A DNA stretch of 53,991 bases from a virus. Lineage: Duplodnaviria; Caudoviricetes. How positions within the stretch are numbered: position 1 is the first letter of the stretch; each line of letters opens with the position of its first letter. The notes under the pieces were generated by a model. The model worked only from the letters and a program-made list of their open reading frames with translations, did not search any database and had not been told where the DNA came from. The position numbers were made by a program, and so were the translations under genes. The stretch spans positions 1 to 53,991 of the IMG/VR virus record IMGVR_UViG_3300047157_000023. One strand, given 5' to 3'. Shown piece after piece: positions 1,328 to 53,468 of this stretch.

Positions 1328-1565
1328 TGTACTCATCCACAAACTCCACATTATAATCCAATACCTCCACCCATTTAAGACCATACACGTGTGCATAGTA
1401 GCCGTTGACGTGCCCACTTGACGCACTATGTCTAGGACAAGTTGCATTTTTCAATACATCTGGCTCACCACGAAAGTTTTCTATCGGATCATTCAATGAT
1501 ACTGGTTGCATATCATTCTCGGTTACTAGGCGAAATGTTGCCCCATTAAAGTTTTCTTCAATCAT
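1311..1565 (-). CDS. Early hypothetical protein
   Basis: 84 aa ORF with AAGGAG SD upstream on the - strand. Confidence 0.65.
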   Translation of the reverse strand: MIEENFNGATFRLVTENDMQPVSLNDPIENFRGEPDVLKNATCPRHSASSGHVNGYYAHVYGLKWVEVLDYNVEFVDEYNETNL

Positions 1566-1597
1566 GTTATACTCCTTCTCTCTATATTAACATGAGA

Positions 1598-1627
1598 AAA
1601 CACCCGACAAAATATTATCGGGTGTTT
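1598..1627 (-). terminator. Stem-loop after first early gene (terminator or RNase III-type processing site)
   Basis: AAACACCCGA (1598-1607) / TCGGGTGTTT (1618-1627), a perfect 10-bp inverted repeat. Confidence 0.5.
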
Positions 1628-1660
1628 ATCCAATACCAATCATAGTGTTATGTTATAACA

Positions 1661-2167
1661 TTATGCTGCTACTTTTTCTAATACCTTTTTATTATCCAAT
1701 TCTTTTTGGACAACTTGCAATGCTGCAATCATAGCACCAATTCTTTCTGGATTTCTTTTGGCAATACCTTGTGCATATTTGATTGGGTCAAATTCTTTAA
1801 CCTCAGCATCAGTATTGAAAGCACTAGCCCATTTATTACCTCGCATTGATACATTATCTACCACTAATTGATTTAATACTTCAACCGCACTATTTGATAA
1901 TGTAGCATTTTTAGTTTTAACAATGGTGCGATTTGTCTTTTTATCAGTAGTAATGTTTGCACCGATATAAACAGCTCTTACAGTAGCAGTTAATCCAGAC
2001 AATGCGTTGCTATCTTTTTTGACATTAACCTTGTCAAATAGAACTGATATGATTGAAGTATCACCAGTCTTGATTGCGTGGTTGATAGCGTCAAGTAATG
2101 CCTCGCCCATTTTTTGACCATTACCTAAGTTACGTGAAAAATTGTTTACTATGTTTGAAATACTCAT
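1661..2167 (-). CDS. First early gene, hypothetical protein
   Basis: 168 aa ORF with GGAG SD; first long ORF downstream of the putative early promoter. Confidence 0.8.
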   Translation of the reverse strand: MSISNIVNNFSRNLGNGQKMGEALLDAINHAIKTGDTSIISVLFDKVNVKKDSNALSGLTATVRAVYIGANITTDKKTNRTIVKTKNATLSNSAVEVLNQLVVDNVSMRGNKWASAFNTDAEVKEFDPIKYAQGIAKRNPERIGAMIAALQVVQKELDNKKVLEKVAA

Positions 2168-2820
2168 TTTTTAATCTCCAATTTTATATGAGTTTACGTT
2201 GTCGATATAACTTAATGTTATACCGCTAATGCACACTGTAAAATGTGCATTAAAAGTATAACATAGGGCGCTAAGTGTAAAACCTAACGCCCTAAAACTT
2301 TTTAACTTTCTGGTGAATATCCGTACTGTTTAAACCTTAGTTAATGGCTCAAACAAAATAACCACTTGATATAGAAAGTTTGCCTATACCGCATTGTTAT
2401 TTGGGACTGTTACCCTTTTTCATTTCCCACTTTGGGGAGTGCCCTTTTCAACCTCTTGTCTATGCTCAAGCATTTCAAATACTTAGGGCTGTTTCTATAT
2501 GAAACCACGCTATTCATTTAAACATAATTTAAACTAGTTTGAACTATACTCTAAGACACTAGCCGCTATTCAACTTCGGATCAAATAACTAGCTAGAATT
2601 GTTTCAGCTTTAATCGGCCTATGTGACGTTGCCATAATCACATACCATTTTATTTAGATGGAAGTTTTGCCAATCATCTCCAATGGTTTAAGAGATAATA
2701 GCCTCCGATAATCTGGGGCAAAACTAAATGTCAAATAACGTGGGCTTGCAAGTCTAGGGCTGAAATCTCACTCCGATTTCTGCACCCTGAAAATTGAAAA
2801 ACGACAACTCTCAAAAACGC

Positions 2821-2885
2821 TATAGATCAGAGTATCAAAATAGCGTCAAGCGAAAAAGTGTAAAAAAGATAAAAATAATTTTTTC
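2821..2885 (-). promoter_or_regulatory. Putative early sigma70 promoter with A/T-tract UP element
   Basis: On - strand TTGACG (2849-2844)-N17-TCTATA, with A/T tracts upstream at 2852-2885; points toward the early arm. Confidence 0.5.
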
Positions 2886-2963
2886 AGTAGTAGAAGCAGC
2901 GTGTACTTTTTTGGATTGTAGTGAATAAAGTTTAACGACACAAGTATAGTCAAAATATGTCAT

Positions 2964-3469
2964 ATTCAAATAGTTGAATGTTGCATCAGATCAAACGTAG
3001 TGAGCCGTGTGGAGTTTCCTAGGAACTGCGGTATAGTTGATACAGGATTTTTTGCGTAACTGGTGAGCTAATACAGCAGCTCTGTATTCAAATTTGCTTT
3101 CGAATTTTAGCCGATATTTGGCGATGTTCACTCTCAGGAAACTTTACTGGTAGGCACATCTGTCCACCCAGAGGAAACATGATAGTATTCACGGTTTGTT
3201 CTCTTGTTCTGTTTCTGTTCTAATTGAGAATGGTTCGCAACTAGGATAATGACCGTGTGATATTCAAAAAGTTGAATACTAAAGTTGTACATAAATCTTT
3301 TGTTATTGAGAATCACTCGCAAATATAACGTTATGTTATACTATAACACCAGTGATGTAATAGTATATTGTATTACATACTCAATAAAAACAATATGTTA
3401 TACATATTCGAATATGTGAATGTGTTCTGATAGTATTCTGCGAGATAGATGTTACGTTATAACATAACG
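2964..3469. promoter_or_regulatory. Cluster of palindromic/direct-repeat operators resembling host repressor boxes (ATTC-N8-GAAT, LexA, Fur/Mur, Zur)
   Basis: ATTC-N8-GAAT at 2964, 3262, 3406; RTTC-N7-RTTC at 3187, 3206, 3424; TTGAGAAT-N-RYTCGCAA at 3224, 3306; TGTTATA-C-TATAACA at 3334 with variants at 3450-3469. Confidence 0.6.
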
Positions 3470-3641
3470 GGTGCATGGGTCACGGGGGGTATGCCCGTAC
3501 GTATATATACCCAATGACAGAGATGGGGTTTTTTAGTTTGGACAAATTGTCGCACCTTGTAGCTAAAACAGCCTGTTAACCTTTATTTTGTAATCACAGT
3601 GTATAAATTACAATGTTTTTTAAAATAAATAAAAATAGTAG

Positions 3642-3670
3642 TTGACTTCGGCTGCAATATACTGTATAAT
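3642..3670 (+). promoter_or_regulatory. Sigma70-type promoter of late arm (P1)
   Basis: TTGACT-N17-TATAAT with an AT-rich upstream element. Confidence 0.75.
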
Positions 3671-3779
3671 TACTTATAGTATTACATAAAGAATACTTAA
3701 AGTAACTTTAAGTTTTAATTATTACTAATATATTAATAGTTATTATATACTTAAGGTAACTTTAAGTATACTTTAAGAC
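3671..3779. repeat. Array of imperfect 11-bp palindromes WACTTWAAGTW
   Basis: Copies at 3671 (variant), 3694, 3704, 3748 (variant), 3758, 3769 (variant); same motif at 53409-53468. Confidence 0.75.
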
Positions 3780-3817
3780 AAAATCTAAACTTTTTTTGTC
3801 GTCCCACTTAAAAAGTG

Positions 3818-3846
3818 TTGACTTTACCCTAAAAATTAGGTATAAC
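3818..3846 (+). promoter_or_regulatory. Sigma70-type promoter of late arm (P2)
   Basis: TTGACT-N17-TATAAC, preceded by palindrome CACTT-AAA-AAGTG (3805-3817). Confidence 0.65.
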
Positions 3847-3849
3847 TAG

Positions 3850-4104
3850 ATGAAGAAACCAACAATGTACTCTTCTGACAATGTCGTAGAGGAATTTTAT
3901 AGGGCATTAGCTTCAGAAGACGAAGGTAAACTCCGTAGAGTGCACATTCCTAGATCCGATGTGTTCTACATTAGAGAAAAAATACGAAATGATACAGGTA
4001 TAAAGTACTCTCTGGACAGGGTAGAGAGAGCTATGTACCTTGAAGGTCATTTAAAGGCTAGGGATGTTCTAGATCCCAGAAGAAAACGAGAATGGGAAGA
4101 CTAA
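3850..4104 (+). CDS. Hypothetical phage protein, first late-arm gene
   Basis: 84 aa ORF abutting the next gene; the start could be the ATG at 3865. Confidence 0.75.
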   Translation: MKKPTMYSSDNVVEEFYRALASEDEGKLRRVHIPRSDVFYIREKIRNDTGIKYSLDRVERAMYLEGHLKARDVLDPRRKREWED

Positions 4105-4374
4105 ATGGATGGCTTAAAGATACCAGTAGCTCTAGTTTTTGCAATGGCTATCCAATTAGTAGCATTAGTTTGGTATATTAGTAATCTAGTCCACGATATA
4201 GAACATCTGCAGAACACAGTAGTAGAACAGCAGGAACAATTAGACGTATTAAACCTAGATGTAAACGATCTGTGGAACTTTTGCACCTTCACTGAAAACA
4301 AATGGGCTGAAGCCTACGTTGGAGACATGGTTTATGAACGTGTCTGTGGAAATAAAGAGGTTATAGAGAAATAA
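4105..4374 (+). CDS. Membrane-anchored coiled-coil protein in lysis cassette
   Basis: N-terminal TM (IPVALVFAMAIQLVALVWYI) followed by a heptad-like segment; coupled to the next gene. Confidence 0.7.
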   Translation: MDGLKIPVALVFAMAIQLVALVWYISNLVHDIEHLQNTVVEQQEQLDVLNLDVNDLWNFCTFTENKWAEAYVGDMVYERVCGNKEVIEK

Positions 4375-4703
4375 TGGTAATAGACTTTGACGTAGATGGT
4401 GATGGTAAGATCACAGAACAAGAAGTAGCTATGAAAGAACGTATGCTTGAAGTAGAGCTACGTGAAGAGAAGGCTGAGTCACAAAAGAAGATGGCTTGGA
4501 TAGCTATGGTGATGATGATCGGCTTTACAGTTGTTCTATTTACACCACTAATGTCAGATACACGAGTAGCAGCCCTTGCAGATTTGTTAGGGTTGTTTTA
4601 TATTGCACAAACTGGTATAGTAGCAGCATATATGGGAGCTACAGCTTACATGGCAGGAAAGCCAATGGGCAATAAGGTAGCAATGAAGAAGGATATGAGA
4701 TGA
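4374..4703 (+). CDS. Putative holin with N-terminal EF-hand loop
   Basis: Two TM segments, basic C-terminus, directly upstream of the endolysin; DVDGDGKITEQE loop. Confidence 0.55.
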   Translation: MVIDFDVDGDGKITEQEVAMKERMLEVELREEKAESQKKMAWIAMVMMIGFTVVLFTPLMSDTRVAALADLLGLFYIAQTGIVAAYMGATAYMAGKPMGNKVAMKKDMR

Positions 4704-5167
4704 GTTTTAGACTAAGTCAGAGATCAATGGACAGATTAGAGGGTGTACATCCTGCTATGACTGGAGTTGTAGAAAGAGCTATACAACTTACAGATATAGA
4801 CTTTGGAGTTACTCAGGGTATACGTACCCTAGATGAACAAAAAGCTAATGTAGCCGCAGGAAGATCTCAGACTATGCGTTCTAAGCACCTATTACAAGAT
4901 GATGGCTTTAGCCATGCAGTTGATGTAGTAGCTTACGTAGGCCCAGACGTATCCTGGGAGTTAAACCTGTATGATAACATCTGTGATGCTTTTAAACAAG
5001 CTGCAGAAGAGACTGGGGCATCCGTTAAGTGGGGAGCTGCCTGGTCTGAGGGAGATATTAGGTCGTATCCTGGCACAGCTGAGGATGCAATGATGGCATA
5101 CGTAGACTTACGTAGGTCTCAGGGTCGTAGGCCGTTTATTGATGCGCCTCATTTTGAGCTGATGTAA
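4700..5167 (+). CDS. Endolysin, peptidase M15 (L-Ala-D-Glu peptidase-like)
   Basis: LEGVHP, GIRTLDEQ, SKH...HAVD, WGAAW and DAPHFEL motifs of M15-family Zn endolysins. Confidence 0.9.
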   Translation: MSFRLSQRSMDRLEGVHPAMTGVVERAIQLTDIDFGVTQGIRTLDEQKANVAAGRSQTMRSKHLLQDDGFSHAVDVVAYVGPDVSWELNLYDNICDAFKQAAEETGASVKWGAAWSEGDIRSYPGTAEDAMMAYVDLRRSQGRRPFIDAPHFELM

Positions 5168-53408: not shown

Positions 53409-53468
53409 TACTTAAAGTATTTAATATTACTACTATAAATATTAAAAAACTTTAAGTTACTTAAAGTA
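53409..53468. repeat. WACTTWAAGTW array upstream of recombinase
   Basis: Copies at 53409, 53448 and 53458. Confidence 0.75.

Follow-up and report, generated by a model that had tools for sequence, protein, structure and literature searches.

In temperate phages, control regions can use host regulators in cis, as in the LexA switches of CTXphi, 186 and GIL01 and the CtrA sites of alphaproteobacterial phages. Lambdoid immunity regions carry the OL/OR operator sets of CI and Cro, and iteron-type replication origins are represented by lambda ori and plasmid oriV. The 506-bp stretch studied here (positions 2964-3469) lies in a contig of an HMO-2011-type marine podovirus, a 53,991-bp IMG/VR record hereafter called the window (classed linear; CheckV completeness 96%; G+C about 38%), within a 1.7-kb intergenic region (2168-3849) that is poor in open reading frames (ORFs) and separates two divergent gene arms; the stretch itself contains only ORFs of 44-62 amino acids (aa). 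It is the variable half of this divergent early/late intergenic region, a mosaic of short cassettes that ends at a conserved core. The sites in it are real: they are enriched, conserved as motifs with free spacers, cassette-swapped between lineages and almost confined to the region. Their arrangement suggests that they bind proteins and act in cis, and we consider it probable, with clear reservations, that they are cis-acting operator or iteron cassettes of the phage control region.

The original prediction had named several unrelated operator-like motifs in this stretch, and each of them was found in its place and nearly confined to the stretch within the window. The sites and the elements adjoining them are the following.

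2964-2979: ATTC-N8-GAAT palindrome, copy a (ATTCAA-N4-TTGAAT), kept in 9 of the 9 relatives having the segment, with three spacer variants
2981-2994: FNR-like TTGCA-N4-ATCAA, attributed to chance (retained in 1 of 13 aligned relatives)
3125-3142 and 3161-3178, plus strand: two 18-nucleotide (nt) direct repeats ending GGAAAC, 36 bp apart (family D12)
3187-3220, plus strand: ATTC-N7-GTTC (3187-3201) and GTTC-N7-GTTC (3206-3220), the alphaproteobacterial LexA-box pattern, embedded in TGTTCT repeats
3222-3294: 73-bp insertion/deletion cassette with one TTGAGAAT palindrome and ATTC-N8-GAAT copy b
3224-3240: TTGAGAAT palindrome, copy a, inside the 73-bp cassette
3262-3277: ATTC-N8-GAAT palindrome, copy b, inside the 73-bp cassette
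3306-3322: TTGMGAA-N3-YTCGCAA palindrome, copy b, kept in 13 of 17 aligned relatives
3334-3348: TGTTATA-C-TATAACA palindrome with gamma-type Zur box spacing (PMC2706843), kept in 12 of 17
3406-3421: ATTC-N8-GAAT palindrome, copy c, kept in 11 of 17
3424-3438, plus strand: third RTTC-N7-RTTC, attributed to chance (pattern retained in 1 of 14), with a conserved inner GATAGT
3451-3468: GTTATAAC palindrome (copy at 3456), adjoining the conserved core, kept in 11 of 16
3469-3545: GC-rich core of 75 bp (GCATGGGCCA .. GGGGGG .. GTATATA .. AATGACAGAG), better conserved than any other non-coding element in the family

Three of the window's four copies of ATTC-N8-GAAT (2964, 3262, 3406) and three of its four RTTC-N7-RTTC pairs (3187, 3206, 3424) fall in the stretch, as do both copies of TTGAGAAT-N2-YTCGCAA (3224 and 3306). 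The density above shuffled sequence that had been expected was borne out: among 1000 dinucleotide shuffles of the 506 bp, none reached the observed number of ATTC-N8-GAAT (3 versus a shuffle mean of 0.02), of RTTC-N7-RTTC (3 versus 0.09) or of the TTGMGAA palindrome (2 versus 0.00). Single sites were less significant, GTTC-N7-GTTC being reached in 16 and the FNR-like site in 10 of the 1000 shuffles. These counts overstate significance because the motifs were defined after looking, and the family-wide counts given below serve as the independent check. A motif-free test pointed the same way, with 22 inverted 14-mer pairs (up to two mismatches) versus 2.9 +/- 2.7 in shuffles, none of 300 reaching 22; direct 14-mer pairs numbered 7 versus 1.1, a value reached in 9 of 300.

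The 84-aa protein encoded by the first plus-strand gene is found on 460 viral contigs, the best 80 of which were taken, and a pattern scan of metagenome contigs added nine loci. Family-wide counts cover the 63 of 80 loci with at least 600 bp of upstream DNA (the 17 shorter ones were dropped), which are related loci and were not de-duplicated. In these, ATTC-N8-GAAT occurred 55 times in 73,997 bp of upstream DNA versus once in 307,374 bp of downstream coding DNA, and GTTC-N7-GTTC 28 times upstream versus four times downstream. Each pattern was present in 19 of the 63 loci, ATTC-N8-GAAT in up to eight copies per locus, and the spacer sequences differed widely among the loci.

Alignment over the stretch was possible for the close clade only; far relatives have only two non-coding parts in common, the core (3469-3545) and, from 3640 onward, the region with the promoters and leader. 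Half-sites of ATTC-N8-GAAT, TTGMGAA-N3-YTCGCAA, GTTC-N7-GTTC and GTTATAAC are kept in relatives. Identity was 0.80 in the half-sites versus 0.53 in the spacer for the TTGMGAA palindrome, whose 3306-3322 copy is a perfect 7-N3-7 palindrome in two relatives (L011 and L006), and 0.76 versus 0.51 for the first LexA-like box (3187-3201), kept in nine relatives. The second such box (3206-3220) retains GTTC..GTTC in nine relatives with five further spacers (six including that of the window). The idea that motifs would be conserved over their spacers held for most classes, which keep their half-sites, and failed for the third RTTC pair (1 of 14) and for the FNR-like site (1 of 13), one half-site of which is also off the consensus TTGAT-N4-ATCAA.

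The stretch changes between relatives in whole pieces. The 73-bp cassette is present in the window and two relatives (L007, L096), has a variant form in two others (L018, L097) and is missing from four (L008, L011, L006, L095), while a contig of the virome DNA run X3 has 11 letters in place of 3222-3294; the insertion/deletion falls within one short ORF (3134-3322). The 75-bp core gave BLAST matches in many loci, with about 60 distinct relatives and also CRP-9, and it is conserved together with the late/terminase module across phages with different replication modules. No consensus RNA structure was found for it on either strand among the roughly 60 distinct relatives. Of 61 distinct sequences, 14 have a GTTATAAC box directly upstream of the core, nine a TTGAAT/ATTC-N8-GAAT site, two a GTTC box and eight some other perfect palindrome; in the remaining 28, none was found in what was only a short stretch. 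This sorting indicates one conserved element adjoined by a swappable recognition site.

Cultured phages repeat the pattern in part. All three ATTC-N8-GAAT sites and both GTTC boxes of the CRP-9 genome lie within the homologous non-coding region, as do two of two ATTC-N8-GAAT copies in CRP-2 and two of three in CRP-603. The control regions of CRP-207, CRP-13, CRP-1, CRP-345, CRP-3, CRP-6 and HMO-2011 had no ATTC-N8-GAAT. Among isolates from strain FZCC0023, CRP-2 and CRP-9 carry ATTC-N8-GAAT sites and CRP-1 and CRP-13 do not, and among the cultured phages the presence of these SqrR/BigR-type sites does not track host strain. An integrase is present in 19 of 20 relatives with or without LexA-like boxes and thus has no discriminating power. 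A nucleotide search of 2200-3900 against the phage collection, in near and distant modes, gave no match.

If the sites are cis-acting, the cassettes would carry recognition sequences for sequence-specific, mostly dimeric, DNA-binding proteins, and the bound proteins would determine how active the adjoining core and the rightward promoters for the lysis and structural genes are. The same would hold for the leftward early operon and perhaps for replication initiation. Control in cis is favoured because the sites have a fixed place beside the core and between divergent operons, because there are few of them per class and because the phage has a further operator set. Minus-strand genes end at 2167, plus-strand genes start at 3850, and strong promoter-like sites stand at 3642 and 3818. 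In the plus-strand consensus fold the palindrome arms are either invariant or broken and never compensated, and this lack of co-variation argues for protein-binding DNA rather than RNA stems.

Several observations weigh against the operator reading. ATTC-N8-GAAT is missing from 44 of the 63 loci and GTTC-N7-GTTC likewise from 44, and few of 10 cultured relatives have such sites in the control region (three have ATTC-N8-GAAT and one GTTC-N7-GTTC). The segment 2930-3285 is missing from the close relatives L005, L009 and L010, which have other repeats instead, so the particular sites are dispensable. Consensus patterns of 4+4 nt are low in information, and the ATGTTATAC half-site also builds the arms of a leader hairpin at 2215-2264. 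Promoter-like sites in 1500-4200 are not above shuffles (10 versus 11.9 +/- 3.3), and no predicted promoter overlaps the sites, as the original prediction had said. No repressor-type or helix-turn-helix family was found among 48 small ORFs in Pfam or in the first 25 of 54 PHROG families, and no cognate repressor gene of the CI/Cro type was found beside the operators. The candidate binder phrog_624, which alone is labelled 'DNA binding' in PHROGs, was not found (E up to 0.001) in CRP-9, CRP-2 and CRP-603, all of which bear sites.

The neighbouring promoter-like and leader elements are listed here.

2168-2880, minus strand: leader-like non-coding stretch upstream of the gene for a 168-aa protein, with conserved hairpins
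3642-3670, plus strand: promoter-like site P1 (TTGACT-17-TATAAT), 11 of 12 matches, invariant in close relatives
3696-3712 and 3750-3766, late leader: two CTTAAAG-N3-CTTTAAG palindromes, which also fit TTAA-N7-TTAA
3818-3846, plus strand: promoter-like site P2 (TTGACT-17-TATAAC), recognised by eye, preceding the 84-aa gene, invariant in 9 of 9

One relative (G013) has TTGACA-17-TATAAT at the P1 position. P2 was missed by the promoter scan, whose rule demands T as the sixth base of the second hexamer. The same scan, which covers alphaproteobacterial promoters poorly, predicted no promoter-like site in 3187-3220. A third copy of CTTAAAG-N3-CTTTAAG stands at 53450-53466, upstream of the integrase gene, and its occurrence there and in the late leader indicates that the phage uses dispersed operator sets; we take TTAA-N7-TTAA, which these palindromes fit, to be a CtrA-box pattern. 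In the leftward leader, 45 pairs were predicted for 2168-2430, of which seven show compensatory changes, and several G-U pairs are compatible with the minus strand alone; a hairpin at about 2620-2650, seen by eye, keeps its loop while its stem is changed on both sides in four ways. Contigs of the RNA runs X15 and X17 lie on 2133-2283, 2368-2518, 2567-2747 and 2726-2880. None of the contigs from runs X15, X17 and X18 (contigs only, depth 2-6) lies on 2914-3357, an absence not used as evidence. Searches for tRNAs and Rfam families gave nothing at gathering score, the miRNA and snoRNA matches seen at E up to 10 being no better than chance. An attachment site in the stretch is unsupported, the integrase gene being about 4.6 kb off with its own upstream gap of 173 bp.

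The nearest cultured phages have Rhodobacteraceae hosts, therefore alphaproteobacterial motifs are the proper comparison set; the Rhodobacterales-type host of the original prediction is a reasonable assumption. In excerpts of the respective papers, GTTCN7GTTC is the Caulobacter SOS box (PMC9578287), ATTC-N8-GAAT is the deduced SqrR site of Rhodobacter capsulatus (PMC9774250) and for the Rhodobacter group the computed Zur box is GATATGTTATAACATATC (PMC2706843). The proposed likeness to host operators therefore stood for the LexA, SqrR and Zur consensus sequences and fell for the 'Fur/Mur' label given to the TTGAGAAT palindrome, for which no matching motif was found. The LexA direct repeat is exact at 3206-3220, and the two exact boxes of CRP-9 are the only ones in its genome and lie in its control region; the SqrR/BigR inverted repeat ATTC-N8-GAAT is present in its three copies. 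Judged by the excerpted consensus, the Zur box GATATGTTATAACATATC is the strongest of the three classes, with 15 of 18 positions matching at 3451-3468 and 14 of 18 at 1647-1664, and its 12-nt core ATGTTATAACAT is exact in eight relatives. It is not kept in the Rhodobacteraceae phages: CRP-9 has a TTTAACGTTAAA-type palindrome in its place, and GTTATAAC occurs in 14 of the 61 core-bearing sequences. The gene for the 168-aa protein has GTTATAAC-type sites on its flanks, the one at 1647-1664 among them.

Host stress regulators are credible as candidate binders because three classes equal the published alphaproteobacterial LexA, SqrR/BigR and Zur consensus. Among the small ORFs, the 14 Pfam families found at E up to 0.01 included none that binds DNA, nor was a repressor evident among the best 25 of 54 PHROG families. 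The phrog_624 protein accompanies ATTC-N8-GAAT in 11 of 11 site-bearing loci with at least 3.5 kb of upstream DNA and occurs in 3 of 25 site-free loci, with weak matches in CRP-1 and CRP-345. Clustering of the ORFs in the early regions of 15 loci gave no gene that separates cassette-bearing from cassette-lacking relatives. ATTC-N8-GAAT is found with three early-module types, which makes a binder from a single early module less likely. The failure to recognise a repressor family, the three early-module types and the failure of phrog_624 together lean towards host factors. Against them stands a pattern typical of heteroimmune phages with regulators of their own, namely that phages of the same strain differ in their sites and that CRP-9 has another palindrome. 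Taking both sides together, we regard host binders and unrecognised phage proteins as about equally probable.

The main rival, given the direct repeats and a skew minimum, is an iteron-type lytic replication origin, which we hold to be possible and distinctly less probable than cis-acting operators. The GGAAAC 18-mers and the TGTTCT run would be the iterons of an unrecognised initiator, the A+T-rich 3340-3420 would unwind and the flanking promoters would activate it. The direct repeats stand 36 bp apart with invariant cores, the AGGAAACTTT columns being identical in 8 of 8 sequences, and an inverted GTTTCC at 3013-3018 matches their GGAAAC ends. The region lies between divergent operons, the minimum of the cumulative GC skew falls at 2500-3000, and the phage has a T7-like replisome (primase-helicase, PolA) with no recognised initiator. 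However, the skew turns where the coding strand switches, which leaves replication and transcription inseparable, no gene for an initiator was found, these repeats are missing from L005, L009 and L010, and palindromes, which are not typical iterons, form the majority of the sites.

The position of the stretch in the genome bears on two further explanations. The original prediction had called it terminal DNA that enters the cell first, and this did not survive: the stretch is an internal control region, as judged from contigs. The window start cuts through an ORF (2-478), in the relative L002 the two ends of the window lie 2138 bp apart in the same order, and the HMO-2011 record is marked circular. 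In three relatives classed with direct terminal repeats the ends overlap by 127, 123 and 77 bp, each time at another genome position, and overlaps at unrelated positions are expected of circular assemblies. The roughly 2.1 kb absent from the window (L002:8345-10482) includes an M28-peptidase-like gene, and the gene cut by the window start is that of phrog_624.

T7 has short repeat arrays beside its terminal repeats. By analogy, the core could be a terminase recognition or cleavage site and the adjoining repeats T7-like, but we find such a packaging or genome-end region improbable. The core does travel with the terminase and structural module across differing replication modules, and in 44 of 81 related loci the contig ends no more than about 2 kb to the upstream side of the 84-aa gene. 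These ends are scattered with no single position, the overlaps of the 'terminal repeat' relatives lie at different genome places, and strain diversity can explain the breaks, as 109 variant contig pieces of the virome run X3 fall on 3 kb here. Either strain variation or assembly breaks are concentrated upstream of the 84-aa gene.

The function originally proposed was a decoy array in trans, which would drain host Zur-, LexA- and SqrR-type repressors and thereby derepress zinc uptake, SOS and sulfide-response genes. Three motif classes do equal host consensus sequences in the excerpted literature, the sites are clear of any predicted promoter, one class reaches up to eight copies per genome, no phage repressor was recognised, and ATTC-N8-GAAT occurs with three early-module types while the cultured carriers have Rhodobacteraceae hosts. 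However, DNA that is not terminal is not first-entering in any demonstrable sense, most relatives lack the sites, including CRP-1 and CRP-13 on the strain infected by CRP-2 and CRP-9, and one to three sites per class per genome make a small sink. The fixed place beside the core also fits control in cis better. A decoy is therefore very unlikely: nothing specific favours it and nothing found indicates action in trans over cis. Its extension to a combined sink and sensor for several regulators, in which lineages would plug different host stress-repressor sites (Zur-, SqrR-, LexA-type) beside the same core, is to our mind just as doubtful; if true, amplified phage DNA would titrate the repressors and reprogram the zinc, sulfide and SOS regulons of the host without a phage protein. 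That the stretch belongs to a non-coding RNA, with the palindromes as its hairpins, is the least probable explanation, for although the neighbouring 2168-2880 is structured and has RNA-run contigs on it, the plus-strand alignment fold shows compensatory changes in only 9 of 87 predicted pairs (covariation term -1.06), none of them in the palindromes, and there is no Rfam match.

The gene content frames these readings. By its genes the phage appears to be a temperate-type, integrase-bearing marine podovirus with a CRP-9-like late module and a CRP-6-like replication module. Minus-strand genes run from 40.6 to 53.9 kb and continue through 1-2167, and this arm encodes ribonucleotide reductase, an exonuclease, PolA, a T7-type primase-helicase, ThyX, a tyrosine integrase and the phrog_624 'DNA binding protein'. 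On the plus strand (3850-40,568), small genes and an endolysin-like gene come first, and the large terminase and tail fibres follow. The large terminase shares 87.5% identity with its counterpart in Roseobacter phage CRP-9, and PolA is closest to that of CRP-6 (54%). Excerpts of PMC8528129 describe the same mosaic of an HMO-2011-type morphogenesis module, CRP-6-like replication genes and an integrase. A scan of genome contigs for a prophage or host gave only four contigs of metagenome-assembled genomes, with inconsistent taxonomy (Blastopirellula, Patescibacteria, Flavobacteriales).

The first rightward genes (3850-5167) have the look of a lysis cassette and encode the family-wide 84-aa protein and proteins of 89, 109 and 155 aa, with a weak holin match for the 109-aa and a weak Peptidase_M15_4 match for the 155-aa protein; in the CRP-9 record a 'putative endolysin' (gp71) is annotated three genes past the homologue of the 84-aa gene. 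Homologues of the 84-aa protein were found only in RCA roseophages and the SAR116 phage HMO-2011, and its structural model is poor (pLDDT 59.4). The 168-aa protein, encoded by the first leftward gene (1661-2167, minus strand), gave a confident model (pLDDT 86.4) with no fold match in the PDB at E up to 0.001, and the Protein Atlas offered no functional lead for either protein. The cassette with the 168-aa gene is swapped for other DNA in two relatives (L098 and L100).

HMO-2011-type phages are among the most abundant marine phage groups according to excerpts of PMC9038755. In the accessible text on this group, LexA is not mentioned in PMC9038755, PMC8528129 and PMC6918029, nor intergenic or non-coding DNA in the first two; the lysis-lysogeny choice of HMO-2011-type phages is thus undescribed in the literature searched. 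Our analysis maps a family-wide control region, made of a 75-bp core and swappable operator cassettes, some of them identical to host LexA, Zur and SqrR consensus. It also supplies specific DNA probes, and CRP-9, CRP-2 and CRP-603 as cultured proxies, with which the regulators could be sought, and raises the question of whether the stress state of the host gates infection by HMO-2011-type phages.

Compared with iteron origins, the locus shares direct repeats beside an A+T-rich stretch in an intergenic position at the GC-skew turn, whereas it has no initiator gene that we could find, consists mostly of palindromes and loses the repeats in close relatives. Like the lambdoid immunity regions it presents repeated palindromes of about 16-17 bp between divergent operons, and as among heteroimmune lambdoid phages the operator sequence varies between related phages. 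Lambdoid regions have one operator class in about 80 bp, whereas here the sites of at least five motif classes extend over 500 bp and no CI- or Cro-like gene was recognised. The consensus patterns match operators of Rhodobacterales and Caulobacter (Zur, SqrR/BigR, LexA), although the sites are on a phage and not before zinc-uptake, sulfide-oxidation or DNA-repair genes. Unlike in temperate phages that use host regulators, several unrelated operator classes are packed together here, off recognisable promoters and swapped as cassettes, and they are candidate sites from sequence alone. As in those phages, host-type operators occupy the main regulatory intergenic region of an integrase-bearing phage, and as in LexA-controlled phages one of them, GTTC-N7-GTTC, is the LexA pattern of alphaproteobacteria.

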